A stretch of 64,000 nt of DNA from Spirochaetia bacterium. GTDB taxonomy: Bacteria > Spirochaetota > Spirochaetia > SZUA-6 > Fen-1364. A program made the translations under genes and the position numbers. Position 1 is the stretch's first letter. Each line of letters opens with the position of its first letter. The notes below the pieces were generated by a model that had not been told where the DNA came from, made no database searches, and saw nothing but the letters and a program-made list of their open reading frames with translations. Of the stretch, positions 24,689-41,800 are shown piece by piece. The stretch spans positions 37,504-101,503 of the forward strand of contig JBEKQU010000005.1 in the NCBI GenBank assembly GCA_049519415.1, read 5' to 3'.

Positions 24689-24724
24689 TATATACTCATT
24701 CAGGCAACAATCGAGAGGCTATCG

Positions 24725-27112
24725 ATGAGTGAAAGAACCGGACAGCTGCAGCAAACCATCAAGGCCATGCTGAATGCGGGCGTGCGTCGGACCACTTTCT
24801 ATCCTCTGGTAAGCGAATCGCTGGATCAAACCCAGGGAAAACCTAGGCCACTACGGCGTGCCATGGCTTTTGCCTACTTGCTGGATCACGTTGAGCAGGT
24901 TGTTCTGCCCCATGAGCTCTTGGCCGGCTCCATCACCGGGATGTGGCCGTTGGCGGAAGATCATGCCACCATCGAACAGCAGTTGATGGAAGGACGCCAG
25001 GCGATTGAAGAGTACCTGCGGCAGCGCCAGCACAACCCTCCCGCCCAAGCGGTGGAGCGCTGGGCGCTGATGGCGCGCGACCACTACGATGCCCGAATTC
25101 GCTTCTCCGATCTGCAGCAGGTCGCTCAAACACTTTCGCACGAGTTCAACGGCAGCCACCAGCTCCCCTATGCCGAGCTGTACCGGGTTTTGGAAAATCA
25201 TTTTGTATTCGATTACGGGGAGCGGGTGCGTAAGAACTTTGCGGAGCTGCCATGGTTCACCGCCAATCATCTCTCTCTGAGCTTCAAGAAAGCACTGGAG
25301 CGCGGCCTGGGAGACATCAGGCAGGAAATCCTTTCCCGTCGATCGCAGGCCGGAGAACCCGCTCAACAAGAGTTCTATGACTCGACCCTCATCGCCATGG
25401 ATGCCGCCATGCGCTTCATTCACCGCTACGCTGGCACCCTGCAGCAAGCGGCCAGCCAGGTTCACACGGTGCGGGCACAAGAGTTGCTTGAGATGGCCGG
25501 CCTCTGCGATCGGATCGCGGAAAACGCGCCGCGGACCTTCCGCGAGGCAATCCAACTGGTCTGGATGATCCACCTGATCAGCAACATCGGCGGCGGGGCG
25601 GCCATGTCCTTTGCCCGATTCGACCAGTACTTGGGGCCTTTCTATCAACGTGACCTGGCCGCGGGAATAGTCACGCCCGAACAAGCCAAAGAGCTGATCG
25701 CCCACCTGTGGCTGAAGACCAACGAAGCAAAGATGCGCACGGTGCAGAGCCTGGCGCTCTCCGGGATCGACCGCAGCGGCCGGGATGGCACCAATGACCT
25801 GACGTACCTCTGTCTTGATGTCATTGCCGAGGTCCGCGAGCCCTATCCCAATACCTGCGTGAGGATGCACAAGGACAGCCCTGCCAAGCTGTGGGAGAAG
25901 GTGATCGACACGCTGCTGATCGGCATAGGGCAGCCGCAGATCTTCAATGATGACGCCATGCTGCGCGGCATGGCGCGGGCGGGTCTCCCGGTGGAGGACG
26001 CGCGCGACTATTACCCGATGGGCTGTGTTGAGGTGATGCTGGAGGGGGTGCAGCCCACCTACCAGGGCATTGGCGGTGTGGTCTTTGCGGGGCTGCTTGA
26101 GGCGGTCTTCAACAACGGCGGCGCGAATACCGCCGGCGAAACCGGCTGCCCCACGGGCGAGCTTTCCTCCTTCCCGACTTTTGATGCTTTCCTCAACGCC
26201 TACCTGACCCAGGTCCGCTGGCGGCTCACCAATTCGATCCATGAGGCCGAAGAGCGCAGCCTGCATGGGGCCAGGGAGCTGTACGATCCTTTCGCGTCGA
26301 TCTTCGTGGAAGACTGCCTGAAAAAAGGCAAGGATGTCTGTCAGGGCGGAGCGCGCTACCCGGCGTGCTTCACAATGAACGGGTTAGGATTCGGAACGGC
26401 GATCGACTCTCTGGCTGCCATCAAGACGGTCGTCTATGGACGCAAGCAGTACTCCCTGCAGCAGGTCAAGGCGATGCTGGATAAGGACTTTGCCGGCGAT
26501 GAGTCGGCCCGGGTGCTGCTTGTCAGCCACCCCGCGGCCTACGGGAATGATCTGGAGGAAGCGGATTCCATCGCGCGCCAGGTGTACAGCGCCTTTGTCG
26601 ATACCGTCCTGGATTACCGTTCTCCCATCGGCGCATTCTTTTTCCCGCAGATGTTCAGCTATAACTCGCACGTCAATCGCGGTGAAATCACCGCCGCCAC
26701 TCCCAACGGGCGGCGGCGCGCTGAGGCGCTCAGCGACGGCCCTGGGCCGACGCAAGGCCGGGACGTGAGCGGGCCGACGTGCCTGATCAACTCGGTGACG
26801 GGCATGGATGGGAGCAAATTGATCGGCGGCTGCGGCTTCAACATGAAGATCAGCCCGGATTTCGTCCGCGGTCCAGAGGGCAGGAAAATATTGAAATCAT
26901 TGCTCCTTACATACTTGCGGAAAAATGGGATGCAGATCCAGGTCAACCTGATTGACCAGGAGACCTTGCGCAAAGCCCAGCAGTTCCCCGAGCAGTACCG
27001 CAACATCATCGTGCGGGTGGCAGGGTATTGCGAATATTTTGGCAACTTGGATCGCAAGCTGCAGGACGAGATCATCCGCCGCACGGCCCAGCTTGCCCCC
27101 GCCGCGACGTGA
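24725..27112 (+). CDS. glycyl radical enzyme (PFL2/glycerol-dehydratase clade)
   Basis: C-terminal glycyl radical motif RVAGYCEYF and active-site GCVE. About 795 aa. Confidence 0.85.
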   Translation: MSERTGQLQQTIKAMLNAGVRRTTFYPLVSESLDQTQGKPRPLRRAMAFAYLLDHVEQVVLPHELLAGSITGMWPLAEDHATIEQQLMEGRQAIEEYLRQRQHNPPAQAVERWALMARDHYDARIRFSDLQQVAQTLSHEFNGSHQLPYAELYRVLENHFVFDYGERVRKNFAELPWFTANHLSLSFKKALERGLGDIRQEILSRRSQAGEPAQQEFYDSTLIAMDAAMRFIHRYAGTLQQAASQVHTVRAQELLEMAGLCDRIAENAPRTFREAIQLVWMIHLISNIGGGAAMSFARFDQYLGPFYQRDLAAGIVTPEQAKELIAHLWLKTNEAKMRTVQSLALSGIDRSGRDGTNDLTYLCLDVIAEVREPYPNTCVRMHKDSPAKLWEKVIDTLLIGIGQPQIFNDDAMLRGMARAGLPVEDARDYYPMGCVEVMLEGVQPTYQGIGGVVFAGLLEAVFNNGGANTAGETGCPTGELSSFPTFDAFLNAYLTQVRWRLTNSIHEAEERSLHGARELYDPFASIFVEDCLKKGKDVCQGGARYPACFTMNGLGFGTAIDSLAAIKTVVYGRKQYSLQQVKAMLDKDFAGDESARVLLVSHPAAYGNDLEEADSIARQVYSAFVDTVLDYRSPIGAFFFPQMFSYNSHVNRGEITAATPNGRRRAEALSDGPGPTQGRDVSGPTCLINSVTGMDGSKLIGGCGFNMKISPDFVRGPEGRKILKSLLLTYLRKNGMQIQVNLIDQETLRKAQQFPEQYRNIIVRVAGYCEYFGNLDRKLQDEIIRRTAQLAPAAT

Positions 27113-27146
27113 GCCGCACGATGCTCCCAGAGGAGACGCGAATCTC

Positions 27147-28160
27147 ATGAAAGCCGTTGCCGCTACCGCCCGGGGAAAAGTCGAAGTCGTTGAAATCCCA
27201 ATGCCTGAAATACAGGACTACGAGTGCCTGGTCAAAGTAAGAGCCTGCGGGTTTTGCAATGGCACCGACATGAAGATCATTGACGATGAGGTGAGCACTA
27301 CTCCGGTCGAATTCCCAGTCATCCTGGGCCATGAAGGGGTCGGAGAGGTGGTCCAGGTGGGGAAAAAGGTCAAGAACATCCATGTGGGGGAGGTCTACCT
27401 CAATCCTCATGGCCGGATCATGCCCGGCACGCCATTCAAAGGCATGTGGACCAACATGGTGGAGTATGGCTTCCTGCCCGATTACCAGGTCATGGACGAA
27501 CTGGGCATTGGCGGCCCGCGCTGGGGAGCCAATCTCTCCATCCCGCCGGAGATTGACCCGCTGGATGGCGGGGTCATCCTGACGCTCAAAGAGTGCTTCA
27601 GCGGCGTCCGCAATTTTGGCGTCCAGCAAGGCCAGTCCGTCCTGGTCTACGGGGACGGCCCGGTGGGCCTGGCGCTGGTAAATTTCCTGCGCATGGCAGG
27701 CGCGGCGTGGGTCGGTTGCGTGGGGCACCAGCCCCAGCGCATGGAGTGGATCGCCAGCCATTCCCAGCCGGACCTGCTGCTCAATTCGCATGTGGAGTCC
27801 GTCCCGGAACGTATAGGAGAGCGGCGCCTGGACTTGGTGATTGACGCGGTGGGCTCAACCGCCATCATCCGGCAGGCTTCTCGCCTGCTCAAGCCAGGCG
27901 GCAAGGTGGGCGTTTTGGGCGTGATCAAAAACAAGGACGCATCCCTGTCGCTGCTGGACCTCGCCAACCACACTTCGCTGCACATGCTCAATTGGCCCTA
28001 TCGGGAACACGCGTCTCATGATGAAATTGTTGGCTTGATTCTGCAGGGCAAGATCAAACCCAAAGATTATTACAGTCACGTCATATCGATAGATGAGGCT
28101 CCCCGAGCGATGGAGATGATCAGGACGCGGCAGGCTTTCAAGGTAGTGCTGAAAATGTGA
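27147..28160 (+). CDS. zinc-dependent alcohol dehydrogenase (MDR family)
   Basis: GHEGVGEV zinc site, CGFCNGTD structural zinc region and a GxGxxG motif (VYGDGPVGLA). Confidence 0.85.
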   Translation: MKAVAATARGKVEVVEIPMPEIQDYECLVKVRACGFCNGTDMKIIDDEVSTTPVEFPVILGHEGVGEVVQVGKKVKNIHVGEVYLNPHGRIMPGTPFKGMWTNMVEYGFLPDYQVMDELGIGGPRWGANLSIPPEIDPLDGGVILTLKECFSGVRNFGVQQGQSVLVYGDGPVGLALVNFLRMAGAAWVGCVGHQPQRMEWIASHSQPDLLLNSHVESVPERIGERRLDLVIDAVGSTAIIRQASRLLKPGGKVGVLGVIKNKDASLSLLDLANHTSLHMLNWPYREHASHDEIVGLILQGKIKPKDYYSHVISIDEAPRAMEMIRTRQAFKVVLKM

Positions 28161-28246
28161 TTGCCGGTCAGCGCTAGGGGCTCGCTCACGCGGCACGCGG
28201 CCTGTCGATTGACAAGGCGGGATCCTGCAGCTACGCTCGAATCGGC

Positions 28247-28597
28247 ATGATGCAGGCGAAGACCGAGCTGGCAAGAGATCCCGTTCTCCTCTCGTTGTTG
28301 GAGCGGATCAGGAGCACCCTCGATCCCGAGCGTGTCTACCTGTTCGGTTCGAGGGCACGGGGTCAGGCAACTCCGGACAGCGACTACGATTTTCTCGTCG
28401 TCGTCCCGCATTCGGACAAGCCCCGCTATCGACGGGATCAGGAGGCGTACCTGGCGCTGTGCGGAAGTGGCGTCGCAAAGGACATCATTGTGCTCACCCG
28501 AGCAGAGTTCGAGTCGTCTCGTCGGGCTGTCTCATCGTTGACCTCCGCGGTCCTCAGCGAGGGGATCCTTCTGCATGAATCAGGAAACGCGAGCTGA
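28247..28597 (+). CDS. nucleotidyltransferase-domain protein (MNT-type antitoxin)
   Basis: LFGSRARGQATPDSDYDFLVVV is the GS...DxD nucleotidyltransferase motif. Confidence 0.7.
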   Translation: MMQAKTELARDPVLLSLLERIRSTLDPERVYLFGSRARGQATPDSDYDFLVVVPHSDKPRYRRDQEAYLALCGSGVAKDIIVLTRAEFESSRRAVSSLTSAVLSEGILLHESGNAS

Positions 28598-28745
28598 AGC
28601 TGCAGCGTGGCTCGCCAAGGCGCGGACGGATTTACGCGCAGCCCTGGCTGATCTGAACGCATCTCCGCCGATCACCAGCGATGCGCTGTTTCACTGCCAG
28701 CAGGCGGTTCGCCGGAACCCGATCTGGCCACGGCAGAGGCGGGCA
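28575..28745 (+). pseudogene. HEPN-domain toxin gene, disrupted (frameshift into Arg-rich nonsense)
   Basis: The N-terminus (AAAWLAKARTDLRAALADL...ALFHCQQAV) matches HEPN. It loses the expected EKALKA continuation. Confidence 0.5.
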
Positions 28746-29022
28746 TGGGAACCGAGGTCCGCCTCCCTGTTCCGCTCGCGCCGATCGCCTCGACGGTCCC
28801 GGCGGCGTCGGCCCCGAGTATCCGCATCTTGGGCCGGAAGAGCCCGCCTGCCATGAAGCGGATGAAGAAGGGATTCGCCCTCATCCTGCGATCATCGCTT
28901 GAGTTGATCGAGGAGGCGCGGACCTTGATCAGGATCTCGTCCTCCGCCGGGGCGGGTTTCTCGACGTCCCTCAAAATGAGGACTGACGGCGATCCGTAGC
29001 TGTCATACACTATTGCTCTCAC
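28672..29022 (-). pseudogene. quinone oxidoreductase/Zn-ADH family N-terminal fragment
   Basis: RAIVYDSYGSPSVLILRDVEKPAPAEDEILIKVRASSIN...ILGADAAGTVEAIG is a classic QOR N-terminus. It breaks down after about 110 aa and overlaps the HEPN fragment. Confidence 0.5.
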
Positions 29023-29129
29023 GCTCGCTGCCTCGCTTGGAAAAACCCATGCCTTGGAATATAGGGCAAGCCGCGCGCTCGGACGCACACACTTAAGTGT
29101 GGTTTCGAGTGTGTTCTTTCGATCGGTTG

Positions 29130-29291
29130 CGGGTCAGGTGCGCGGAAGGGCTCTCCAATCAGGAAATAGGCAAGCGCCTCTTCCTCGCCCTGGACACGAT
29201 CAAGGGCTACAACCGGAGAATCTTCGAGAAGCTTGAGGTCAAGCGGCGCACGGAAGCCATCGCCCGCGGCCGCGAGCTGGGCATGCTGTAG
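29130..29291 (+). pseudogene. C-terminal LuxR-type HTH fragment of a MalT-like regulator
   Basis: LSNQEIGKRLFLALDTIKGYNRRIFEKLEVKRRTEAIARGRELGML is very similar to the C-terminus of the intact regulator at 35817-38540. Confidence 0.6.
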
Positions 29292-29400
29292 CAACCTTCC
29301 CGCCTGTACCGATCTCCCGCATCCCTGAAAACAACACTCAGAACGACACTTTCGTGTCTGCGCGCCGCGGGGCGGAATGGGCATGCTTGCACTATCAAAG
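29235..29400 (+). repeat. left copy of inverted repeat (LuxR 3' end plus downstream leader)
   Basis: About 95% identical to the reverse complement of 35406-35561. Confidence 0.8.
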
Positions 29401-29401
29401 G
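29379..29401 (+). promoter_or_regulatory. conserved 23-bp element GGGCATGCTTGCACTATCAAAGG, copy 1, about 15 nt upstream of the start codon
   Basis: One of three identical copies, each upstream of an RBS and start codon. Confidence 0.45.
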
Positions 29402-29416
29402 TGAAAGGAGAAAATC

Positions 29417-30106
29417 ATGGGAACAACAGAGAAAAAATCGCGGATCCTCGGGCTGGCTTTTCTGATCCAGTTCGTCACATCGTTCACGGGCGGTGTGCTC
29501 GTGCTCCCCATGGCGACCGGGGTGGGGGGCTTCGGTCGGATGGAGAACATCGGCCAGACCATGGCCACCATTGCGAAAAACGCAGGGCTTGTCCGTTTCG
29601 ACATCCTCCTGGAGCTGGTCACCGCGGCCGCCATCATCTTCCTCGGCGGGATGCTGTACGCGGCGGTGAAAAAACAGAACAAGGGACTGGCTTTGACCGC
29701 TTTTGGTCTCTACGTCATGGAAGGCGTCATGATCGCGGTCACAAAACTCGTGCTCTTTGCACTCCTGGCAATCAGCCAGCAGTACATGGCCGCGGGCAAC
29801 CCCGTCTCGCTGGAGCCGACAGCCAGGATGGCATACGAAGTGATGTCGTACTCCTCCAAGATGTTCAATTTCGCCGCCTGCCTGGGCATCACGATCTTCT
29901 ACGCCCTGCTTTACAAGGCCCGCACAGTGGCGCGGCCCTTGACGCTGTGGGGACTGGTGAGCATCCAGGGCGTTTTCGCGGGATTACTGATGGGTCTCTT
30001 CGGCCTCGAGGCACCCATCTACCTCTACGTCCTCTACATCCCCTTCGAGCTCGTGATTGGCGTCTGGATTCTCATCAGAGGCGTGAACAGGGAAGCGGTG
30101 AACTAG
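29417..30106 (+). CDS. DUF4386-family membrane protein
   Basis: 229 aa, multi-TM. N-terminus SRILGLAFLIQFVTSF. RBS AAAGGAG. Confidence 0.6.
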   Translation: MGTTEKKSRILGLAFLIQFVTSFTGGVLVLPMATGVGGFGRMENIGQTMATIAKNAGLVRFDILLELVTAAAIIFLGGMLYAAVKKQNKGLALTAFGLYVMEGVMIAVTKLVLFALLAISQQYMAAGNPVSLEPTARMAYEVMSYSSKMFNFAACLGITIFYALLYKARTVARPLTLWGLVSIQGVFAGLLMGLFGLEAPIYLYVLYIPFELVIGVWILIRGVNREAVN

Positions 30107-30112
30107 CGCAAT

Positions 30113-30135
30113 GGGCATGCTTGCACTATCAAAGG
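30113..30135 (+). promoter_or_regulatory. conserved 23-bp element copy 2
   Basis: Identical 23-mer upstream of the second DUF4386 gene. Confidence 0.45.
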
Positions 30136-30152
30136 ATCACAGGAGGCATTTC

Positions 30153-30845
30153 ATGGACACCTATCGACGATCAGGAATTGTGACGGGGATCTTGTTCATC
30201 GCAGCGGACGCAGCCGGTTTCCTGTCATTGTTCGCGCAACCGCTTCTCAACGCCCCGGACTACCTGACAAAAATCTCCGCGAATGAACTGACGGTCCTCG
30301 CGGGGGCGTTGCTTGTCTTCATCATGGGCTGGGCCGATGCCGGCATCGGGATTTCGATGTATCCGATTCTGCGGAGGCACAACGAAGGCCTCGCCCTGGG
30401 CGCTGCCGGATTCAGGATCATCGACGGGGTCTTCCATTGCATCGGCGCCGTTCTCATCCTCCTGTTGGCGACCTTAAGCCGGGAGTTCATCACGGCGGGA
30501 CCTGCCGATCTGGCGCAGTTCCAGAACCTCGGCGCGCTGCTGAGGGAAGGGCGCACTTGGGTGGGCGATGTGGCGGCTCTGCCCGCCTGGTGCATCGGCG
30601 CGTTCCTGTACTATTCGCTGTTCTTCAAGACGCGGCTGGTCCCTCGCTGGCTGTCCCTGTGGGGGCTCGTCGGGATCACCCTGACTCTAGCCGGCAGCAT
30701 CCTGGTCTTGTTCCGCCAGATCGCCTCCCTGTCGTCCATCCAGATGCTGATGTACCTGCCCGCCGCTCTGCAGGAAATAGTGCTGGCGATCTGGCTCATC
30801 GTGAAGGGATTCAATCCCTCCGCAATCGCCTCGCCGCAGCGCTGA
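30153..30845 (+). CDS. DUF4386-family membrane protein (tandem paralog)
   Basis: Same architecture as the upstream gene. AGGAGG RBS. Confidence 0.6.
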   Translation: MDTYRRSGIVTGILFIAADAAGFLSLFAQPLLNAPDYLTKISANELTVLAGALLVFIMGWADAGIGISMYPILRRHNEGLALGAAGFRIIDGVFHCIGAVLILLLATLSREFITAGPADLAQFQNLGALLREGRTWVGDVAALPAWCIGAFLYYSLFFKTRLVPRWLSLWGLVGITLTLAGSILVLFRQIASLSSIQMLMYLPAALQEIVLAIWLIVKGFNPSAIASPQR

Positions 30846-30875
30846 TGGCTGCGCGGTGCGGCGACGAAGAGCCTC

Positions 30876-31109
30876 ATGAAGTATCAGATAAGGATCGAGG
30901 GCGAGTTGGGGCAGGAATGGGCAGACTGGTTCGGAGGCCCTGCCATCTCTCGAGAGGGAGACGGCATCACGCTCCTGACCTGCGCCGTGGCCGACCAGGC
31001 TGCGCTGCATGGCCTGCTCAGGAAACTGCGCGATCTGGGCCTGCCCTTGCTTTCGGTCAATCGCATCGACGACTACCCCGAGGGGAAGCCCGAGGGAAAG
31101 TCAAAATAA
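30876..31109 (+). CDS. small hypothetical protein (77 aa)
   Basis: ORF with protein-like composition. No motif recognised. Confidence 0.35.
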   Translation: MKYQIRIEGELGQEWADWFGGPAISREGDGITLLTCAVADQAALHGLLRKLRDLGLPLLSVNRIDDYPEGKPEGKSK

Positions 31110-31152
31110 CCATCGCGGCATGGCGAGACCACCGCGACAACAGGAGGTTGCA

Positions 31153-31611
31153 ATGAAATCCAGGGATGTTCTCAGGGTGGCAGGGCCGGCGGCCGTGCTC
31201 TTCGCCGTCGCGCTGCTGATCTCGTGCACCACGACCAATCTGGCGAGCAACAGGACCGGGTGGTCGGATTACGCGACCATCGCGATCAAAGACTACACCC
31301 CCGTCGGAATCGTAAGCGTCGTGAGCGAGGAGGTCACCCAGCGCGGCTTTCTTGGCATCGCCAATTCCCACACGGGTTCGCAGATCACGTACGACTTGCT
31401 CATCAGTGAGGCGAAGAAGCTCGGGGCCGACGACATCATCAACGTCAGGATCGATCGCACGGACGCGAGCCTTCACGGAATCTTCGATTGGCTCATCGGG
31501 TACACCGAGAGGTACGCGTACAACGGCAACGCGCTGGCGATCAAGTACACACAGGCCGCTGCGGGATACATCGCCGACGGTGCCAGCGGTCCCTCCGGCA
31601 TGGGACTGTAG
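31153..31611 (+). CDS. hypothetical lipoprotein
   Basis: Signal peptide with lipobox LLISC. RBS CAGGAGG. Confidence 0.5.
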   Translation: MKSRDVLRVAGPAAVLFAVALLISCTTTNLASNRTGWSDYATIAIKDYTPVGIVSVVSEEVTQRGFLGIANSHTGSQITYDLLISEAKKLGADDIINVRIDRTDASLHGIFDWLIGYTERYAYNGNALAIKYTQAAAGYIADGASGPSGMGL

Positions 31612-31708
31612 CACCAGAGCAGGGACGGCTAGAACAGGATGGCGAATAATCAACATTGAGAGCACGGGTGGCGTGCCTCGGAGGGCGACCTTGGAAAGCA
31701 GAATTGCG

Positions 31709-32557
31709 ATGAAACGGGCGACCACTGGCGAACAGGACAGCATGGGTCTTTACCTGCGGGAGCTGCGCGGGATCCCCCGACTGAACGCCGAGGAGGAACA
31801 GGGCTGCGCGCGGCTCGCGGCCCAGGGTGACCAGAAGGCACGGGAGCGGCTGATCCGGGCGAACCTTCGGTTCGTGATCCTGGTGGCCAAGCGGTACCGC
31901 AACCGCGGCGTTCCGCTGGAAGACCTCATCAACGAGGGCAACATCGGGCTCATCCAGGCGGCGAAACGGTTCGACCCCGAGCGGGGCATCCGGTTCGTAA
32001 CCTACGCGGTCTGGTGGATCCGTCAGGCGATCCTGAAGGCGATTCCAGAGAACAGCCGCCTGGTCCGCGTGCCCAGGAGCCGCGCGGGAGAGCTCGCGCG
32101 TATCGAGACGCTGCGTCACGACGGGCTGATGGAAAGCGGCAGCGAGCCTCGCCTGGCGGAGATCGCCCGGTCCCTGATGGTCGAGGAAGGGGAACTGGTG
32201 GCGCTGATTCGGGCTGGCCAAAGGACGCTCTCGCTGGACAGCCCGGTCACGAACGTGGAGGACTCCGAGTCCATCGGCTCCTGCCTTGAGGACCGGAATG
32301 CTCCGAATCCGGAGGAGGTCCTGGTCGGCGCACTGCTGAAGGACGAGCTCGGTTCGGCCCTGGCCGGGCTTTCAGACCGCGAAGCGGTCATCCTCCAGGA
32401 CCTCTTCGGGCTCGCCGGCCGCGAACGGACCTCGCTGCTGGAGGCCGGCAGGAAGCACGGGTTGAGCAAGGAGCGCGTGCGCCAGATCGAGATGAAGGCC
32501 TTGCGCAGGATCCGCGCCTCGGACAGCGCGTGGCAGCTCGAGGCATACGCGAACTGA
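31709..32557 (+). CDS. sigma-70 family RNA polymerase sigma factor (regions 1.2-4)
   Basis: Region 1.2 (LYLRELRGIPRLNAEEE), region 2 (LIRANLRFVILVAKRY...DLINEGNIGLIQAAKRFD...FVTYAVWWIRQAI) and region 4 (LSDREAVILQDLFGL...LEAGRKHGLSKERVRQIEMKALRRI). Confidence 0.8.
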   Translation: MKRATTGEQDSMGLYLRELRGIPRLNAEEEQGCARLAAQGDQKARERLIRANLRFVILVAKRYRNRGVPLEDLINEGNIGLIQAAKRFDPERGIRFVTYAVWWIRQAILKAIPENSRLVRVPRSRAGELARIETLRHDGLMESGSEPRLAEIARSLMVEEGELVALIRAGQRTLSLDSPVTNVEDSESIGSCLEDRNAPNPEEVLVGALLKDELGSALAGLSDREAVILQDLFGLAGRERTSLLEAGRKHGLSKERVRQIEMKALRRIRASDSAWQLEAYAN

Positions 32558-32758
32558 TGGAGGGCGAAGTCATGATTCGAGTGCTGGGCGTTCATGTTTG
32601 AGCAAACCTTGATGATTCCTGTCGGTGATCCGAAAGGGGTGACGCTTTCGTGGGTTATCAACTGCGAAGGTCATCAGGGAAAGGAGGACTATGGACAGAA
32701 CCTATCTCGTTGCTTGGTCATGGGTGTTTCTTTCAGCATCTCGTAGAGGAGGAAAAAG

Positions 32759-33100
32759 ATGAACGGTATGTTGAAACGGGTGATATTGCTTTTGATCCTT
32801 GTCTTGGCTGTAGTAGCTTGCGCAAGCACCCCTCCTGTCGTTGATTCCGCGCTCATAGGAAAGTGGGGGATACCTGACCCAACAACCGGCAAGGCTTTGA
32901 GACCCATGCTGGAATTTCAGGCAGACGGTACCTATATCATTGGTACCATGGCTTACCGGTTTGAAGCACGTCAAAAACAGGGGTCGTACTGGAATCCGAG
33001 CATTCCATTCATGAAAACGAAGTTCACCTACACGATCACCGGTTCGGATATGAGGATAATTACTGGCGTTGTAGTCTCCGACGTAACCAAGATGGAGTAG
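32759..33100 (+). CDS. small hypothetical lipoprotein
   Basis: Signal and lipobox (VVACAS). 113 aa. Lies in the lower-GC patch. Confidence 0.45.
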   Translation: MNGMLKRVILLLILVLAVVACASTPPVVDSALIGKWGIPDPTTGKALRPMLEFQADGTYIIGTMAYRFEARQKQGSYWNPSIPFMKTKFTYTITGSDMRIITGVVVSDVTKME

Positions 33101-33674
33101 CCATCCAAACATCTGTTTAACAAGGAGAGTCTATGAGAAGCCTTTTGAGCAGAAAGAGGTTGTTGCCTGCCAGGGTCCGTTTCGTAATCCCGCCCGCTGA
33201 GGCTGCGCATCGCTCGCCAGGCTGAGATGCGCTGATCCGCCAGGCAGGTGGCGCATGCTCGTGACAGCTATACGTTCCCTGCGCGGGATTGTGCGTGGTA
33301 GTGGATGGGAATGCCCCGGCCCGGAGCATTCCGACCCATCCGTCCGGCTATCGGAGCCCCTGCCGTTGGGAAAGCCGGCGCCAGGAGGGGTGATCGTGCA
33401 ATCGGGCGTCTCGGAGGGAGCCGGATAATGTGACCTACGTGTTCAAGGACTTGGGGAATGGCCAGGTGGAAACGGCCGTAAGCTCGAAGATGACTCCCGC
33501 GATCACGGTACCTCTCTGGATGATAGAGGCGGCCTTTCCTGGCGCGGGAGCCAATGTCATCCGGAGAATCGTGAAGCTCGCCAAAAACAATCAGCACAAT
33601 GGTTCAAATAGTGTACTTGATATTTTGTCCGAACGATTGCGCGGATATCGCAGAGAACCGGAAGGGAGGAAGCC

Positions 33675-34430
33675 ATGGGCAAGATGGTAAGAATTGGGGA
33701 GGATGTCGAGGGATATGCCGTCCCCGTCCTGAATGAAAGGGAGATACGGGCATCGGCAGGAATGCTGTTTTTAGCCATGCTGCTATCTTATTTGCTGATC
33801 ATATTCAAGGGGAATTTCTTGCTGATCAAGTACGTGATAACCATCTTTCTCGCGGATATGACCATACGCGTATGCGTCAACCCCGGATTTTCTCCATCGC
33901 TAATAATCGGTCGTTTGATAGTAAGGAATCAGACCCCCGAATATGTCGGGGCAAGACAAAAGAGGTTCGCATGGACAATATGCATGGCTTTGTCCGCCAC
34001 CATGTTCGCTTTGATGGTTGTGGCAAACACATATAGCCCGATAACGGGAATCACCTGCTTGATTTGCCTAACTTTCCTTTTCTTCGAGTCGGCTTTTGGC
34101 ATCTGTCTGGGATGCAAGTTCTATCCCTTGTTTTTCAAGAATAAGGCTCACTACTGTCCTGGCGAAGCGTGTGAGGCGAAATCAAGGAAGGGCATTCAAA
34201 AAACATCCAAAGCCCAGATGCTTGTCGTTCTCGGATCCATCGCCTTCATTTTCCTTGCGGTCTTCCTGTTCAATGGAAGCTTCAGCAAGAAGCCCCATGC
34301 CTTGTTTGGAATGGGCAGTTCTATAGGGTCCGATTTGCCCCCTTATGGGCAACCAGCGCTCCGGCTGCCCCCAGGTGCTGCATTGCCCGGTCCGCATAAT
34401 GAATCAACGCGGCGAGGAGAGGCGCTTTGA
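33675..34430 (+). CDS. integral membrane protein, possibly DUF4395 family
   Basis: N-terminus with AVPVLNEREIRASAG followed by 4-5 TM segments. Cys-rich C-terminus. Confidence 0.4.
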   Translation: MGKMVRIGEDVEGYAVPVLNEREIRASAGMLFLAMLLSYLLIIFKGNFLLIKYVITIFLADMTIRVCVNPGFSPSLIIGRLIVRNQTPEYVGARQKRFAWTICMALSATMFALMVVANTYSPITGITCLICLTFLFFESAFGICLGCKFYPLFFKNKAHYCPGEACEAKSRKGIQKTSKAQMLVVLGSIAFIFLAVFLFNGSFSKKPHALFGMGSSIGSDLPPYGQPALRLPPGAALPGPHNESTRRGEAL

Positions 34431-34616
34431 TCACCGGCCGCCGCGGCCATTGCCGCACTACAGCTCGATAATGCTAACATGCAAAATCTCCTGCCTGTTT
34501 CGCGACTCCCCCGGCCTTGCCGCCCAGGGGCTCTACAATGCCGCGCGTATAGCGCGCGCTCGGGGAGAGAAGGACCGGGCTGCCAGGATGGAGCGGAGCT
34601 TCCGCAAGCTCGATGC

Positions 34617-35345
34617 TCAGAGCTCTCCGCAGTAGCGCGCCGAAGTCAGGTCATTCTCAAGCTGGCGCGCCACGGAGCGCGCGGACCTGAGGGCGAGTTC
34701 TGTGAATCCGCGCGCAAGGTCCTCCTCCGACATTTCCGAAAGTATGGTCGCCGTCACCATGTTGCCGACGATCCGTCCCAGGCCGAACATGGCGGGGCTG
34801 GCGGGATCGTTCACGATAATGTCGCGACGCCATATAAGTTCACCGCCGGCGCTGCGAGCCAGACCTGCAGTCAGGTGGATGCGCAGGGACACCGCACTCC
34901 CGAAAGAGTGCGCCCGGATGCCCCAATCCTGGATCGAAAGCACGAGCACATAGTCGGCCCGCATTCCCTCCGGTTCCTGCTCTGCATCGAGTGCCGCTGC
35001 GCACGCTGCGTAGGATTCCCTTAAAAGAATCTCCGGCACGTCGACAGACGCCAGGGCGCTGCGCATCGTCCCCGCGGCTTTTTCCGCCTGCCCCGCCTTT
35101 GCAAGATTGGTCATCACGCTGAGTGCGCTGTAGACCGGCGTGTGTTTGTCCAGCGCCACGTAATAGGAGACATCCACCCGCGGCTCGGGAGGGGTCTGCA
35201 TGTCGGCGGCAAGTGTCGCGCCCTTGAAATCGTACCTTTCAAGCCTGTTGACCGTTGAGCATGAGGCGAGCAGGGCTGCCAAAGTCGCACACGCGGCAGC
35301 GGCCAGGATTTTTTTTACGGCGTTCATGATACGCTTCTTTTCCAT
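34617..35345 (-). CDS. hypothetical lipoprotein
   Basis: Signal and lipobox LLASCS after MEKKRIMNAVKK. The ORF extension upstream (to 35453) covers a duplicated leader remnant. Confidence 0.5.
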   Translation of the reverse strand: MEKKRIMNAVKKILAAAACATLAALLASCSTVNRLERYDFKGATLAADMQTPPEPRVDVSYYVALDKHTPVYSALSVMTNLAKAGQAEKAAGTMRSALASVDVPEILLRESYAACAAALDAEQEPEGMRADYVLVLSIQDWGIRAHSFGSAVSLRIHLTAGLARSAGGELIWRRDIIVNDPASPAMFGLGRIVGNMVTATILSEMSEEDLARGFTELALRSARSVARQLENDLTSARYCGEL

Positions 35346-35561
35346 TTCACAATCCCCGATCGTCGATAGGTGTCCATGACATGCCTCCTGTGATTCTTTG
35401 ATAGTGCAAGCATGCCCATTCCGCCCCACGGCGCGCAGACACGAAAGTGTCATTCGGAGTGTTGTTTTCAGGGATGCGGGAGATCGGTACAGGCGGGACG
35501 GCCGCTACAGCAAGCCCAGCTCGCGGCCGCGGGCGATGGTTTCCGTGCGCCGCTTGACCTC
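35343..35561 (-). repeat. right (inverted) copy of LuxR-3'/leader repeat, extended by a duplicated 5' end of the second DUF4386 gene
   Basis: The reverse complement matches 29235-29400 and then 30113-30185. It includes the remnant start MDTYRRSGIV. Confidence 0.8.
35405..35427 (-). promoter_or_regulatory. conserved 23-bp element copy 3 (minus strand)
   Basis: Reverse complement of GGGCATGCTTGCACTATCAAAGA. Confidence 0.45.
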
Positions 35562-35726
35562 GAGTTCGCGCCGGCTCAACGGATCGGTGAGCGATGGCGA
35601 GAGAGAGGAAGCGGATTCGGTGATGGCGCGCTTGCGCGTCTGCTTCTCCGCCGCGAAGGCCGTCAGCAGCTTGCCCGCATAGGCCGGCATTATTTCCGTT
35701 GGAGCCACGGAGAGGAGCCTGGCCAT
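35505..35726 (-). pseudogene. LuxR-type HTH C-terminal fragment with internal deletion
   Basis: ...PLSRRELEV|KRRTETIARGRELGLL. The core HTH between the two 'LEV' repeats is deleted relative to the intact gene. Confidence 0.55.
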
Positions 35727-35816
35727 CGGGGCTCCCTCAGATTGTCCGGGAGATACTGGCCGACAAAGGCGTAGGGATCAGCGATCCGAGCGGCAGGGGA
35801 AGTGAATCGTTAGGTT

Positions 35817-38540
35817 TTGCCGCTTTATAAATTCTGGGGCGTGTCTTATAATGGATTTGTGCCTGCGCCAATTTTGGCCACGAAACTATATATCCCACCA
35901 CTGCGACCTAAAATTGTCCTCCGTCCCCGCCTGATCGAGCGGCTGAACGAGGGTCTCTCTTCGAATCGCAAGCTGACGCTCATCTCTGCCTCCGCTGGCT
36001 TCAGCAAAACCACGCTGGTCAGCGAATGGATTGCTGATTCCAAGCGACCAACTGCCTGGCTATCGCTGGATGAAGGGGATAACGATCCAGCATGCTTCCT
36101 GACGTACCTCGCCGCTGCCTTGCAGACGATTGCACCGAATATTGGAGCAGGGGCGATTGCTGTGTTCCAATCCCCTCAGCCACCCTCCACCGAGTCGATT
36201 TTGACAGCCCTGCTCAATGAAATCACCACCATCCCGGACACTTTCATCCTCGTCCTTGACGACTACCACGTGATTGACGCCAAACCTGTTGACCAGGCCC
36301 TCACTTTTCTGCTCGAGCACCTGCCGCCGCAAATGCACCTGGTCATCGCCACCCGTGAAGACCCGCCACTGCCCCTGGCCCGCCTGCGTGCCCGAGGCCA
36401 ACTCACCGAGCTGCGCGCCGCCGACCTGCGTTTTACCCCCACTGAAGCCGGCGATTTTCTCAACCAGGTGATGGAGCTGAACCTCACGGTGGAAGACATT
36501 GCCGCACTCGAAGCCCGCACAGAAGGCTGGATCGCCGGTCTGCAATTGGCTGCGCTTTCAATGCAGGGATGTCAGGATGCCGCCAGTTTCATCAAATCGT
36601 TCACCGGCAACCACCATTTCGTGCTGGACTATCTGGTAGAAGAAGTCCTGCAACGCCAGTCCCAAAGCATCCAGACTTTTCTGCTGCGCACTTCAATCCT
36701 CGACCGCCTGTGCGGCCCGCTGTGTGATGCTGTTCTGCGTTCTCCTTCCGCTTCCGGGCAGGAGACCTTGGAAAATCTCGAACGCGCCAACCTGTTCATT
36801 GTCCCTTTGGATAATGAGCGGCGTTGGTACCGCTATCACCATCTTTTTGCCGAATTGCTGCGGCAGCGGTTGCAGCAAAGCGCATCTTCAGGGAATGAAG
36901 ACATGGCCGAATACCACATCCGTGCCAGCCGGTGGTATGAAGACCATGGCCTGGAGATTGAAGCGTTTCAGCATGCGGCTGCGGGCAACGATATTGTGCA
37001 CGCCGCGCGGATCATTGAAGGAAACGGCATCCCTCTGCACTTTCGTGGTGCGGTGGCCTCCATGCTGGACTGGCTGGCGTCGTTGCCGACAACGGTGCTG
37101 GATGCGAAACCCTCGTTGAGGGTGAGGTTTGCCACGTTGTCGCTGGTTGCCGGACAACCGACCGGTATCGAAGAAAAACTGCAAGCGGCTGAGGCGTCCT
37201 TGGCTGCCGTTCTGCAAGGCGCCGAGCCAGACAACAAGACCCGCGATCTGATTGGACAAATTGCTGCCTCAAGGGCTACCCTGGCGCTCACCCGCTACCA
37301 GCCGGCAGCCATGATCACCCAGGCTCGCCGTGCCCTGGAGTATCTGCCCCCCGACAACCAGCTTTCCCGTTTCAGGGCAAGTTGGACGATGGGGATGGCC
37401 TACCAATTCCGGGGAGAACGCACGGCAGCCAGCCAGGTCTATGCAGAAGCATTGTCCATCGCCCAGGCCGCCGGGAATGTTCTCAACACCAGTTTGGCTA
37501 CACTCTGCCTGGGCCAACTGCAGGAACTGGACAACCAGCTCCATCCGGCGGCCGAGACCTACCAGCGTTCCCTGCAGCTGCTTGGCGATCATTATTTACC
37601 CCCCAGCGCCAGCGAAGCCTATCTTGGCATGGCCCGCATATTCTACGAATGGAACGACCTGGAGGCCGCTGAGCAGCACGGGCAGCAGGCCTTGCAGTTG
37701 GCGCGACAGTATGACCGCGTGATTGACAGATATATTCTCTCTGAGGTGTTTCTGGCCCGCCTGAAACTGGCCTGTGGCGATGTGGCCGGCGCGGCCGCCA
37801 TGTTGGCGGAGACCGCGCAGTCCGTGCGACAGAATAACTTTGTGCATCGGATACATGAGGTGGCTGCCGCGCAGGTGCTTGTCCTGCTTCGACAGGGCGA
37901 TCTGGCGACGGCCGCTCAGTTGGCCAAGACCCACGAACTCCCCAGCAGCCAGGCCAGGGTACATCTGGCCCTGGGAGACCCGTCCGCAGCGTTGGCTTTG
38001 CTTTCGCCATTGCGCCAGCAGATGGAAGCCAAGGATTGGCAGGATGAACGGCTCAAGGTGATGGTTCTACAGGCGGTCGCGCTCCATGCGCGTGGAGAAA
38101 AGGAAAAGGCAATTCAACTGCTGGGTGAGGCCCTGGCACTGGCAGAGCCGGGCGGCTTTATCCGCCTCTTTGTTGACGAAGGCGAGCCAATGCGAATGAC
38201 GATTTCTGATTTTCGATTGTCGATTGAAAAGCAACCGCACGGCCAGGAGCATAATCTGCTCGGTTACGTAGATAAGCTCCTGGCTGCTTTTGCACAACCG
38301 GCGGCCTTGCCGCAATCGAAAATCGAAAATCAAAAATCCAAAATGCTTGAGCCATTGAGCCAACGCGAGTTGGAAGTACTGCAGCTTATTGCCCAGGGAC
38401 TCTCGAATCATGAGATTGGTGAGCGGCTTTTCCTTGCCCTGGACACGGTCAAAGGGCACAACCGCAATATTTATAGCAAACTACAGGTTCAAAGACGTAC
38501 CGAAGCCATAGCCCGAGCCCGCGAGCTGGGTTTGCTGTAA
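35817..38540 (+). CDS. MalT-like STAND NTPase / LuxR-family transcriptional regulator
   Basis: The N-terminus (ATKLYIPPLRPKIVLRPRLIERL) and Walker A (SASAGFSKTTL) are followed by TPR-like repeats and a C-terminal LuxR HTH. The start is ambiguous (TTG 35817, GTG 35859 or TTG 35874). Confidence 0.85.
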   Translation: MPLYKFWGVSYNGFVPAPILATKLYIPPLRPKIVLRPRLIERLNEGLSSNRKLTLISASAGFSKTTLVSEWIADSKRPTAWLSLDEGDNDPACFLTYLAAALQTIAPNIGAGAIAVFQSPQPPSTESILTALLNEITTIPDTFILVLDDYHVIDAKPVDQALTFLLEHLPPQMHLVIATREDPPLPLARLRARGQLTELRAADLRFTPTEAGDFLNQVMELNLTVEDIAALEARTEGWIAGLQLAALSMQGCQDAASFIKSFTGNHHFVLDYLVEEVLQRQSQSIQTFLLRTSILDRLCGPLCDAVLRSPSASGQETLENLERANLFIVPLDNERRWYRYHHLFAELLRQRLQQSASSGNEDMAEYHIRASRWYEDHGLEIEAFQHAAAGNDIVHAARIIEGNGIPLHFRGAVASMLDWLASLPTTVLDAKPSLRVRFATLSLVAGQPTGIEEKLQAAEASLAAVLQGAEPDNKTRDLIGQIAASRATLALTRYQPAAMITQARRALEYLPPDNQLSRFRASWTMGMAYQFRGERTAASQVYAEALSIAQAAGNVLNTSLATLCLGQLQELDNQLHPAAETYQRSLQLLGDHYLPPSASEAYLGMARIFYEWNDLEAAEQHGQQALQLARQYDRVIDRYILSEVFLARLKLACGDVAGAAAMLAETAQSVRQNNFVHRIHEVAAAQVLVLLRQGDLATAAQLAKTHELPSSQARVHLALGDPSAALALLSPLRQQMEAKDWQDERLKVMVLQAVALHARGEKEKAIQLLGEALALAEPGGFIRLFVDEGEPMRMTISDFRLSIEKQPHGQEHNLLGYVDKLLAAFAQPAALPQSKIENQKSKMLEPLSQRELEVLQLIAQGLSNHEIGERLFLALDTVKGHNRNIYSKLQVQRRTEAIARARELGLL
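38201..38347 (+). repeat. intragenic inverted repeat (~20 bp arms) with 4x heptamer TCNAAAA tandem array
   Basis: tgattttcgattgtcgattg matches the reverse complement of caatcgaaaatcgaaaatca. It lies in the linker before the HTH domain. Confidence 0.5.
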
Positions 38541-38762
38541 GCGCGATGATAGAGGGTGCGGGCGTACGAATGGGCAGGCAGGCCGACTGCGGTTGCCACA
38601 CGTAGGGACAATGCGGCGAATGGCAGGGCCGCTTGAAAAGTAGCGGGATTCCGTCCCGTGGTAGACGCCAACCTGGCCTCTATCCTCCATCCCTGGGCCG
38701 CCCTGGGCGGCTGGCGGGCTTCCACTCCCCTTGAGGAGATGGGGAACTTCTGCCTGAGACCT

Positions 38763-38791
38763 TTGACCCTTGCCGGCGCCCATGGTAGAAT
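38763..38791 (+). promoter_or_regulatory. sigma70-like promoter TTGACC-N17-TAGAAT upstream of giant OmpA-family gene
   Basis: Good hexamers and spacing, about 65 nt upstream of the ATG at 38855. Confidence 0.45.
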
Positions 38792-38854
38792 TTCAATGCC
38801 CCGGGTGCGACCTTCCTGGCCATCCGTGGTACATTGACGGAATCGAGGTGCAAG

Positions 38855-41800
38855 ATGAAGAACGCCCGAGTTTGCATGGGGCCGCGGTATGCCGCGGCAT
38901 GCCTGTTCGCCCTTCTTGCGGCGGCTGCAGTTCCAGCCTTCTCGCAGAACGCGTCCATGGACCTTTATGATCCCGGAACGCTCGCCTCCCTTGGCAGTGG
39001 CGCCGCAGCCGGTGCCCTTGGGGGAATCCCTGGCTTGCCAGGCGCGTCCGTGTTCTCCCTTGCCGTATCTCCGGGCGCTAGCGCGCTCAACCCGGCCGCT
39101 GCCGGCTGGCTGGAGCGCATCACGATCGACGCCAGCTACCTCGGTCTGGCCGGCCTCGGGCCCAGCACGGGGTGGGGCAACCTGGCCAACCTGGGCGCCA
39201 GCTTCCCCACACCGTACGGCGTGATCACGGCGAGCGGGCGCTACCTCGGCTCCACCTTCCCCACCCTGAACGTGGGATCGATGGGGTCATTCAACCTTTC
39301 CTTTGCGAAGGACGTCTATCGCGATCTTTCCGTAGGCGCCGGCCTTGGCTTCCAGATCGGCCAGGACTGGGGACTCGGGCTGGACCTCGGGTTCGTTCAT
39401 GCTCCGGGTGACCTCGGCTTCCTGCGGAACTTCCGCTGGGGAGCCGCGATACGGGGGATCGGGAAGGGCTACAACACCACCAGCATCACCGACGGAGAAG
39501 GCACCGTTCCGCCGTGGTTCACCCCGGACATCGGCACCAGCTTCGACCTGGTCTCCACGGTCCCCTTCTCCCTCTCCGTTGCATCGGACCTGAGCTTCCC
39601 GGCTTTCAGCGACGTGCGCTTCGCCCTGGGTCTGGGGATCGGCATTCTCAACACGGTCAGCGTCCAGGCGTCCTATGCCTTTGACCTGAACGACACGCTG
39701 GCGGGTACCGCCAACTCGTTCCCATTCGGCTTTGGGCTGTTTGCCACCATCCCCATTCAGGGTGCCGGCGACATGGCTGTCACTTCGGCCGGGGCGCCGC
39801 TCTCGGGCGGGGTCTGGGGCTTTGGGCTCGGGACAACCTTCAGCTTGGGAAAGATCGATCGCTCAGCGCCGGCCATCACCCTGGCGAGCACGGAGGATGC
39901 GTACATCTCGCCGGGAACGCAGAGCGCTGACCAGATGCTCTCCGTTCCCCTGACCATCACGGACAGCCGATACCTCAAAGGGTACCGCCTGATCATCTAC
40001 GACAGCACCAGCAAGGTGGTGCGAACCATCGAGACGGTGGATCAGGGACCCACCAGCTCTGGCATCCGCAACTTTTTTGACCGGCTGTTCAGCGCAAAGA
40101 AGAGCATCCCCGTGCCTCAGGCGCTCACCTGGGACGGCAAGGATGACTCAGGCCAGCAGGTTCCGGATGGGACGTACACCTACGCGGTTGAGGCCTGGGA
40201 CGACAACGGGAACCAAGCCCGCATCGACCCCAAGGTCATTGTAAAGACGGTGCCTCCGCAGGTCAGCGTGAGCGCGCCGTACCTGGAGTTCTCCCCAACC
40301 GGCGAAGGAACCAGAGGAAGCCTCACCATCGAGCAATCGGGTACCTCGGAAGACCTCTGGGTTGGGACCATCTACGATTCTTCCGGCAACGAGGTCCGCC
40401 AGTTCCGCTGGACCAACGAACCGCCGCAGACCTTCACTTGGCAGGGCAAGGATACCAACGGCAAGCTCCTTCCGGACGGGACCTACACCTACAAGATCAC
40501 CAGCACGGACCGGGCCGGTAACACGGGAACCGCTACCCTTGAAGGGATCGTCATCAACACCCAGGCGACCCCCATAGATCTCACGACCGATCTGCCGGCG
40601 TTCTCTCCCGGTGGGCAGAGTCCCAAACAAGTCATCCATCTGATACCCACCGTCAAGGTAAAGGACGGCATCGACCACTGGTCCCTGGTGGTGACGGATC
40701 TAGCAGGCTCGGTGAAGCGGACGTACACCGGAACCACGCTGGCGCCCGAGACCATTGCCTTCGATGGCAAGGATAACGAGGGTACGGTGCTGCCGGAGGG
40801 CATGTACCGCGCAACGCTGAACGTCAACTATCGCAATGGGCACAACCCCACGTTGGATTCTCCCGATTTCCTGCTCCGCGTCACTCCTCCCTCGGCAACG
40901 GTCAAAGCGCAGTACCTGGAGTTCTCGCCGGATGGGGTAGGTACGCAGACAAAGCTGCCCCTGGAGCAGAACGGCTCCACGGAGATCCTCTGGCAGGGCT
41001 CCATGGCGGACAGCACAGGCAATACCGTCCGGTCCTACCAATGGAATGAGAGCGCGCCGAAGAGCTTCTCCTGGGACGGCCGGGACGACAACGGAAAGCT
41101 CGTGCCGGATGGCGCCTATACCTATCAGCTCACCAGCACGGACCCCGCGGGCAATACGGGCGGCGCGGAGGTTGCGGGCATCGTGGTGAACACGGTCCCC
41201 ACGCCCGTATCCTTGGCGGTGGATTACTCCGCTTTCTCTCCGACCGGCAATAGCTCCAAGAACATGTTGACCTTCTCTTTGACCGCGCCGGTCAGCCGCG
41301 GCATGACGCGCTGGACTTTGGCAGTCCGGGATCGAACCGGCAAGACCCGGCGCAACTTCTCGGGCACCAGCCCCCTGCCGGCCACGCAGGTCTTTGACGG
41401 CAAGGACGACGACGGCGTTGTCCTTCCCGAGGGGCCTTACAGCGCCACGCTTGCCGTGGTGTACGCGAACGGGCACGCTCCATCTGGAGACTCGCCGCAG
41501 TTCGTCATCGACGTGACTCAGCCGACCGCAACGGTCAGCTCTGACTACGCGGTGTTCTCCCCGATCGGGCAGGGCACCCGGAACCTGGTCACCTTCACCC
41601 AGAGCGCGACAAAGGACGCGGCCTGGACCGGCGTCGTCAAGGATGCGAAGGGGACACCGGTGCGCACGGCAAGCTGGAAGGGCAGGCCGGACGTGAAGTT
41701 CGTTTTCGATGGCCACGGGGATGACGGGAAGCTCTTGCCGGACGGGAAGTATACCTACACGCTCGCCGGGATCGACAACGCCGGCAACATAGGCGGCGCA

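Follow-up and report, generated by a model that had tools for sequence, protein, structure and literature searches.

The LAL regulator family has been defined previously (PMC3282765), and the described systems closest to the one presented here are the MalT-dependent promoters and the regulon of Actinoplanes sp. SE50/110, in which a STAND/LAL regulator combines a MalT-type TPR region with a C-terminal LuxR (GerE) helix-turn-helix (PMC7567727, PMC4381067). In Actinoplanes, the MalT-like activator has a palindromic site that ends 34.4 +/- 1 nucleotides (nt) before the transcription start and overlaps the -35 region (PMC7567727), and lux boxes are centred at -42.5 (PMC4471428). Here we examine a 64,000-nt stretch of DNA from a Spirochaetia bacterium (assembly GCA_049519415.1, contig JBEKQU010000005.1, positions 37,504 to 101,503 of the forward strand), referred to below as the window, in which a 23-nt sequence, GGGCATGCTTGCACTATCAAAGG, occurs upstream of two genes for DUF4386 proteins and of a lipoprotein gene. 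We estimate a probability of about 0.7 that this 23-mer represents the core of an activator-dependent promoter of the sigma-70 and class II type, which has been copied by local rearrangements.

The 23-mer would supply a weak -10 element, CATGCT, and a start site some 7 nt beyond it, as well as the opening bases of a short leader with the ribosome-binding site at its end. A usable -35 would be lacking, and its place would be taken by the half-sites AACAC and, after 7 to 8 nt, ACACTTTCGTGTCT, located 22 nt upstream of the hexamer. A MalT-like (LAL) STAND regulator with a LuxR-type DNA-binding domain would most likely bind these half-sites and recruit RNA polymerase.

The locus resembles the MalT and Actinoplanes systems in the domain composition of its regulator and in the presence of a motif with several half-sites in place of the -35; the 3' end of the motif is located about 35 to 37 nt before the predicted start, as compared to 34.4 +/- 1 nt in the Actinoplanes regulon. 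The occurrence of several half-sites suggests cooperative binding by a multimer. The binding sequences are unrelated, however, with AACAC and ACACnnnnGTGT here versus GGA(T/G)GA and TCATCC-N5-GGATGA in the described sites, and the putative targets are DUF4386 membrane proteins, a 77-amino-acid (aa) protein and alcohol dehydrogenases rather than mal genes. As in class II activation by LuxR, the -35 is weak or absent, and a putative palindromic site for a LuxR-family DNA-binding domain would be centred near -42.5 relative to the predicted start. Unlike the lux box, a 20-bp palindrome for an acyl-homoserine-lactone receptor dimer, the motif combines a palindrome of 12 bp with one or two direct half-sites, and unlike LuxR the regulator is a 907-aa ATPase-type protein. 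The actinomycete LAL regulators of biosynthetic clusters belong to the same protein family and are likewise encoded beside their presumed targets, whereas the loci compared here are from metagenome-assembled genomes (MAGs) of peat Spirochaetota, Chloroflexota, and Actinomycetota, contain no biosynthetic cluster, and carry a different motif.

The triplication of the 23-mer, as reported in an initial annotation of the window, was borne out. Two copies are exact, at 29379-29401 (copy 1) and 30113-30135 (copy 2) on the plus strand, and the third, at 35395-35417 on the minus strand (copy 3), contains a single mismatch, the last G being replaced by A, which leaves 22 nt common to all three. None of 100 dinucleotide-preserving shuffles yielded any 23-mer match. 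Copy 1 ends 15 nt before the ATG of DUF4386 gene 1 (29417) and copy 2 ends 17 nt before the ATG of DUF4386 gene 2 (30153), in the 46-nt spacer between the two genes. Copy 3 is located 17 nt 5' of an ATG from which codons 1 to 10 of gene 2 are repeated, and is also upstream of the lipoprotein open reading frame (ORF). Repeat analysis revealed that the true repeat units exceed 23 nt. Copies 1 and 2 belong to a 30-nt direct repeat (29372-29401 and 30106-30135, identity 29/30), while the upstream flank of copy 3 matches that of copy 1 (29232-29400 and 35396-35564, 169 nt, 95%) and its downstream flank matches that of copy 2 (30106-30183 and 35347-35424, 78 nt, 94%). Copy 3 is thus a composite that lacks gene 1. 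The three copies had been treated as equivalent sites; we found instead two full promoters and one fragment. The 23-mer comprises three spacer bases and a -10-like hexamer, followed by the region of the probable start and the first part of the leader. The promoter features are as follows.

29332-29359, plus strand: operator-like module of putative promoter P1, with CAACAC (29332-29337), the palindrome ACACTTTCGTGT (29346-29357), then CT.
29379-29401, plus strand: 23-mer copy 1, putative core of P1, with hexamer CATGCT (29382-29387), a predicted start near A29394, and the first leader bases.
30106-30135, plus strand: 30-nt direct repeat in which 23-mer copy 2 is located (30113-30135; hexamer 30116-30121), a fragment of a promoter that lacks the operator.
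35437-35464, minus strand: operator-like module of putative promoter P3, with CAACAC (35464-35459), the palindrome ACACTTTCGTGT (35450-35439), then CT.
35395-35417, minus strand: 23-mer copy 3, putative core of P3, with hexamer CATGCT (35414-35409) and a predicted start near 35402.
29055-29122, minus strand: full module P2, pointing leftward, with GAACAC, the palindrome ACACTTAAGTGT (29089-29100), a 23-nt spacer, and the -10 TATATT (29063-29058).

The comparison took in about 80 related loci, which were fetched and given L-numbers (L004, L015, L016, etc.), and the genomes closest to the window, which itself derives from a Joint Genome Institute (JGI) contig of a peat or soil metagenome, were Spirochaetota MAGs. 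Downstream of the regulator stop codon, the shared module consists of the AACAC half-site, 7 to 8 nt, the palindrome ACACnnnnGTGTCT, a spacer that is fixed in length at 22 to 23 nt and free in sequence, and a -10-like hexamer, which in P1 begins 22 nt after ...GTGTCT. In an alignment of 25 modules from Spirochaetota, Chloroflexota, and Actinomycetota MAGs, the invariant columns were confined to the ACAC half-site, the palindrome arms, and positions A2 and T6 of the hexamer, the last two being the sole invariant bases downstream of the palindrome. The hexamer is CATGCT in the window and CATACT, TATACT, TATAAT, TATAGT, TATGAT, or TAGATT elsewhere. The score for likeness to a -10 element peaked sharply at offsets of 22 to 23 nt after ...GTGTCT, and A2 and T6 were found together in 24 of 28 modules at these offsets, as compared to 0 to 8 of 28 at other offsets. 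An A at the second base and a T at the sixth are the most important bases in sigma-70 recognition of the -10. The architecture of the module, its conservation, and its link to regulator genes, described below, are observations; the start site is inferred.

A scan for consensus sigma-70 promoters identified no -35/-10 pair at P1 or copy 2, and none on the promoter strand near P3, where only unrelated plus-strand matches were obtained. The region where a -35 would fall is a GC-rich, variable spacer in the 25-module alignment. The missing canonical pair fits with dependence on an activator. At class II promoters, the activator site overlaps the -35 and is centred at about -41.5 to -43.5; the centre of the palindrome would be located near -42.5 here, provided that the start site is some 7 nt past the hexamer.

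The initial annotation had also suggested an alternative-sigma promoter, possibly controlled by the sigma factor encoded nearby. We saw no evidence for an alternative sigma. The conserved downstream feature is a sigma-70-type -10 hexamer with invariant A2 and T6. A link to the local sigma gene (31709-32557) was rejected, because this gene was missing from all of the related loci that were fetched, the syntenic L016 among them. Specific promoter types were rejected as well. A sigma-54 promoter needs GG and GC exactly 10 nt apart (TGGCAC-N5-TTGC), and the distance from GG to GC in aatGGGCATGCTTGCa is at most N8; it is also disfavoured by the regulator, which is not an enhancer-binding protein. 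Promoters for extracytoplasmic function (ECF) sigma factors have a GGAAC-like -35 and a CGTC or TC-like -10 with 16 to 17 nt spacing, but the GGAAT preceding the 23-mer is GCAAT in copy 2 and CTGAAT, GCGCAG, and GTGTTA in L019, L020, and L021, respectively. The local sigma gene does not encode an ECF type, its product containing regions 1.2, 2, 3, and 4, and it is missing from the related loci. Two other candidates for a -35 were rejected: with TTGCAC as the -35 and a -10 further downstream, transcription would begin at the ATG and leave out the conserved ribosome-binding site, and with ATGACA (in ccgaATGACActtt) as the -35, nothing resembling a -10 is conserved 17 nt downstream.

A sequence model of the full module, run over the 64-kb window, recovered nothing beyond P1, P2, and P3. 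The match to P3 was complete (35406-35472, 62.2 bits) and P2 scored 45.2 bits, while at copy 2 only the last 19 positions were aligned, with 2.2 bits and an E-value of 9.5. The pattern ACACTNNNGTGT was found three times in the window versus 0.15 expected, and all three occurrences belong to P1, P2, and P3. P2, which had not been noticed before, faces the truncated remnant of an alcohol dehydrogenase gene (about 28672-29010, minus strand). It was also noted that the P2 orthologues in L016, L019, and L020 point in the same direction, and that the module in L019 precedes an ORF starting with MKAIVCDRYG.

An exact scan for the 20-mer core of the 23-mer in 185,579 species-representative genomes gave no match, and in metagenomes the core was found in this lineage only, except for two matches in L010 (6762-6781) and L011 (6838-6857). 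These two are located inside coding regions on low-GC contigs, in unrelated contexts, and look like chance matches. Diverged copies of the 23-mer were present at the orthologous position in L012, L015, L016, L018, and L019. According to the initial annotation, occurrence of the element only here, within a larger duplicated block, with no conservation elsewhere and no transcription start nearby, would have refuted its proposal; copy 3 does lie within a larger duplicated block, yet the element is conserved at the orthologous position elsewhere.

The strict module pattern was present in 20 of the 30 loci with a regulator homologue and in none of the 52 loci without one, and inspection by eye showed that 8 of the 10 loci missed by the strict pattern carry variant forms. 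In six of the loci (L022, L026, L046, L049, L066, and L070), the upstream half-site is ATAC, the palindrome has the form ATAC/GTAC...GTAT, and the site in the spacer is also ATAC, while the module spacing and the -10 (TATAAT or TATACT) are retained. A switch from ACAC to ATAC in all half-sites is what co-evolution with the DNA-binding domain predicts, and these loci look like cases where the specificity has switched together with the regulator. In the relatives, a full-length MalT-like regulator, 55% to 80% identical to the 907-aa protein in the window, is encoded directly upstream of the gene 2 orthologue or divergently from it. The distance from the end of the regulator gene to the module is about 50 to 130 nt where the two are not divergent, and the neighbourhoods are otherwise unrelated. 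Homologues with 76% to 80% identity adjoin the same ACAC-type module in L020, L021, and L058.

These results modify the proposal that the 23-mer is an operator for the adjacent LuxR-type regulator. The tie between the promoter region and a MalT-like (LAL) regulator was upheld, since homologues adjoin the region in many relatives, but the 23-mer is probably not the operator. Its GCATGC is lineage-specific, being replaced by ACATAC in most relatives (ACATAC(T) or GCGTGC were seen), whereas the conserved palindrome and AACAC half-site are located 22 nt upstream of the hexamer and are missing from copy 2. The operator is likely to be the upstream ACAC module, and the intact regulator at 35817-38540 is the candidate for activating all three modules. 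Within the coding sequence of this regulator, just before the helix-turn-helix, an inverted repeat of 26 nt that is AT-rich (38201-38226 and 38313-38338, 92% complementary, 86 nt apart) was also observed. The genes and gene remnants around the promoter copies are as follows.

29127-29291, plus strand: 3' remnant of a paralogous MalT-like regulator gene with the LuxR helix-turn-helix only (GerE, 54 aa); 29142-29288 is 75.5% identical to the C-terminal 49 residues (859-907) of the intact regulator.
29417-30106, plus strand: DUF4386 gene 1 (Pfam DUF4386, E 1.7e-20), inserted between promoter and gene 2 in this lineage.
30153-30845, plus strand: DUF4386 gene 2 (Pfam DUF4386, E 4.3e-41), the ancestral first gene of the operon.
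34617-35345, minus strand: lipoprotein gene (lipobox LLASC), downstream of promoter copy 3.
35324-35377, minus strand: leader ORF of 17 codons, MDTYRRSGIVKWKRSVS and a stop; the first 31 nt correspond to the gene 2 start, and the stop shares ATGA with the codon for Met7, in frame, of the lipoprotein ORF.
35505-35690, minus strand: second 3' remnant of a paralogous MalT-like regulator gene, from which most of the helix-turn-helix has been deleted internally, between two repeats that code for ELEV/KLEV.
35817-38540, plus strand: intact MalT-like (LAL/STAND) regulator of 907 aa (TPR_MalT 1.6e-81, GerE 3.3e-18), divergent from copy 3.

The ancestral order would have been the regulator, the promoter, and DUF4386 gene 2. 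The promoter is followed directly by gene 2, with gene 1 absent from that position, in L017 to L021 and L058. In L015, gene 1 is located between 117-nt direct repeats (96% identity) that comprise the core promoter and the ribosome-binding site together with codons 1 to 26 of gene 2. The right-hand junction is common to the window, L004, L012, and L016, and on the left side in these four the gene 2 fragment has been lost and the 30-nt repeat remains. The repeat in L015, together with the shared right-hand junction and the loss on the left side, identifies copy 2 as the scar of the gene 1 insertion. The order of these rearrangements is inferred: gene 1 would have been inserted just behind the promoter, whereby the core promoter and the start of gene 2 were duplicated, and a later deletion would have cut the duplicate down to 30 nt. 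A derivation of copies 1 and 2 from an old tandem duplication was rejected, because the proteins encoded by genes 1 and 2 are only 28% identical, as compared to 29/30 for the repeat.

Copy 1 would be the working promoter, driving gene 1, gene 2, and the downstream genes. A terminator scan identified none between gene 1 and gene 2, which makes co-transcription from P1 the likely state. Copy 2 would be a leftover without activator site, and is probably just a part of the polycistronic RNA that carries the ribosome-binding site of gene 2. Copy 3 would represent a second, inverted whole promoter with 31 nt of gene 2, and probably drives the fused lipoprotein gene. The remnant DUF4386 start noted earlier at copy 3 is real to the extent that the first 10 codons of gene 2 are repeated, but it continues as the 17-codon ORF. 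The ATGA overlap suggests translational coupling, with the lipoprotein starting at MNAVKK. The fusion of copy 3 to the lipoprotein gene is also present in L016, where the lipoprotein is 88% identical; it is thus older than the split between L016 and the window lineage, and both have kept it. L016 still carries the helix-turn-helix piece that is deleted from the second regulator remnant. Copies 1 and 3 in the window are identical at 102 of 107 positions, as compared to 90 to 91 of 107 with their positional orthologues in L016, which is compatible with gene conversion between them, but no more than suggestive.

Several observations weigh against an activator-dependent promoter as described here. 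The hexamer in the window agrees with TATAAT at only 3 of 6 positions, and the -10 was assigned through comparison only, with many of the aligned modules being from related genomes and not independent. The regulator genes once located upstream of P1 and P3 are now remnants, and control would therefore need the paralogous intact regulator at 35817-38540. In the close Spirochaetota relatives, the CTTGC after the hexamer and the following TATCAAAGG are better conserved than the upstream spacer, and this stretch may have a second function, such as that of a repressor site or in the leader. Finally, copy 2 is nearly intact in three of four lineages, and may thus act as a weak internal promoter.

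Two of these observations lead to explanations of the 23-mer that we consider unlikely. One is that a protein operator is formed by the 23-mer as such or by TTGCACTATCAAAGG, its downstream half, for example a repressor site over the -10 and start, through which a single factor would control gene 1, gene 2, and the lipoprotein gene. Identity of the three copies over 22 nt, retention of copy 2 in L012 and L015, and conservation of the post-hexamer stretch above that of the upstream spacer in close relatives speak for such a site. However, the stretch has no internal symmetry except for GCATGC, which is not conserved and reads ACATAC in relatives, and beyond the close relatives (L020, L021, L058, and the Chloroflexota) only A2 and T6 of the hexamer persist. 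Furthermore, copy 2 in L016 has accumulated 6 changes in 26 nt, including A to G in the hexamer, although the adjacent ribosome-binding region is unchanged. The loss of this key A also argues against the other explanation, by which copy 2 would be a working internal promoter that allows gene 2 to be expressed independently of gene 1, and the duplication would be functional rather than a scar. The hexamer and the downstream bases are retained exactly in L004, L012, and the window and almost exactly in L015, but a recent common origin or gene conversion could account for this identity to copy 1. Copy 2 is preceded by the coding sequence of gene 1, with neither activator half-sites nor a -35, and its hexamer is weak, with 3 of 6 matches and no TG extension beside it. 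We regard a functional internal promoter as improbable.

There is still less reason to think of the 23-mer as a recombination or mobile-element site (attC-like, the end of a miniature inverted-repeat transposable element or insertion sequence, or a target duplication), with gene 1 as a cassette insertion. Direct repeats do flank gene 1, of 30 nt in the window and 117 nt in L015, but the latter is merely the host promoter with the gene 2 start and greatly exceeds the usual length of a transposase target duplication. Neither inverted terminal repeats nor a recombinase or transposase were found nearby, and copies occur only at this locus and its orthologues, the two outside matches to the 20-mer having the appearance of chance. 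We consider this reading very improbable, and the same is true of a role at the RNA level, as a leader structure or riboswitch-like control of translation. In the fold of copy 3, GCAUGCUU within the gene 2-type leader is able to pair with the ribosome-binding region GGAGGCAU(G), but the leaders of gene 1 and gene 2 have different pairing partners and GCAUGC is not conserved in relatives. An Rfam scan of 26000-39000 at E-values up to 1 gave no match, the folds of the three leaders and the P1 region were no better than those of shuffled sequences (z -0.30 to +0.27), and most of the element would be outside the P1 and P3 transcripts if the start is as predicted. The activator-dependent promoter, at which the regulator would presumably bind and activate rather than repress, remains the reading that we favour.

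Other genes in the vicinity were also noted. A gene for a 77-aa protein without a Pfam match (30876-31109, plus strand) accompanies the regulator and DUF4386 genes in about 40 related loci. These loci span Spirochaetota, Chloroflexota, and Actinomycetota MAGs, and in the Chloroflexota it is the first gene after the promoter. The local sigma gene, which encodes a 282-aa protein of the sigma-70 family, is located together with small ORFs on a segment of approximately 2 kb (about 31605-33651) that is missing in the otherwise syntenic L016. The content downstream of the operon is variable, and L004 contains different genes there, including one for an ECF sigma factor. Just to the left of the rearranged region are genes for a glycyl-radical enzyme (PFL-like, an 821-aa ORF) followed by a zinc alcohol dehydrogenase (24647-28160), and next to the alcohol dehydrogenase a gene for a nucleotidyltransferase (28247-28597), the name of which is taken from the JGI gene call only. 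As far as seen, these genes are unrelated to the 23-mer.

The element is ordinary in kind, most likely a duplicated class-II-type promoter, and the triplicated 23-mer would on its own be routine, one promoter core that has been copied by rearrangements. For annotation purposes, copy 2 should not be counted as an independent regulatory site. The locus provides a clear natural example of a promoter scar that remains after the insertion of a gene, and of the way in which a new gene can be captured by a promoter copy. As a by-product, the analysis yields a testable operator and promoter model, with half-sites, spacing, and a likely -10, for an uncharacterised branch of MalT-like (LAL) regulators. 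The model for this branch and its DUF4386, 77-aa protein, and alcohol dehydrogenase targets appears to be undescribed; a full-text literature search on the term DUF4386 found no paper, and the model offers a first regulatory handle on DUF4386 proteins.

The regulators are 55% to 80% identical across Spirochaetota, Chloroflexota, and Actinomycetota MAGs. We tentatively consider, as a possibility with the odds against it, that the regulator, the operator and promoter, the 77-aa protein, the DUF4386 protein, and often an alcohol dehydrogenase constitute one self-contained sensing-and-response cassette that has moved between phyla with its own promoter, and that in this genome the promoter module was duplicated, its copies were homogenised by gene conversion, and a lipoprotein gene was brought under its control. 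If this is true, the cassette would make the growth of a regulon by promoter duplication visible.

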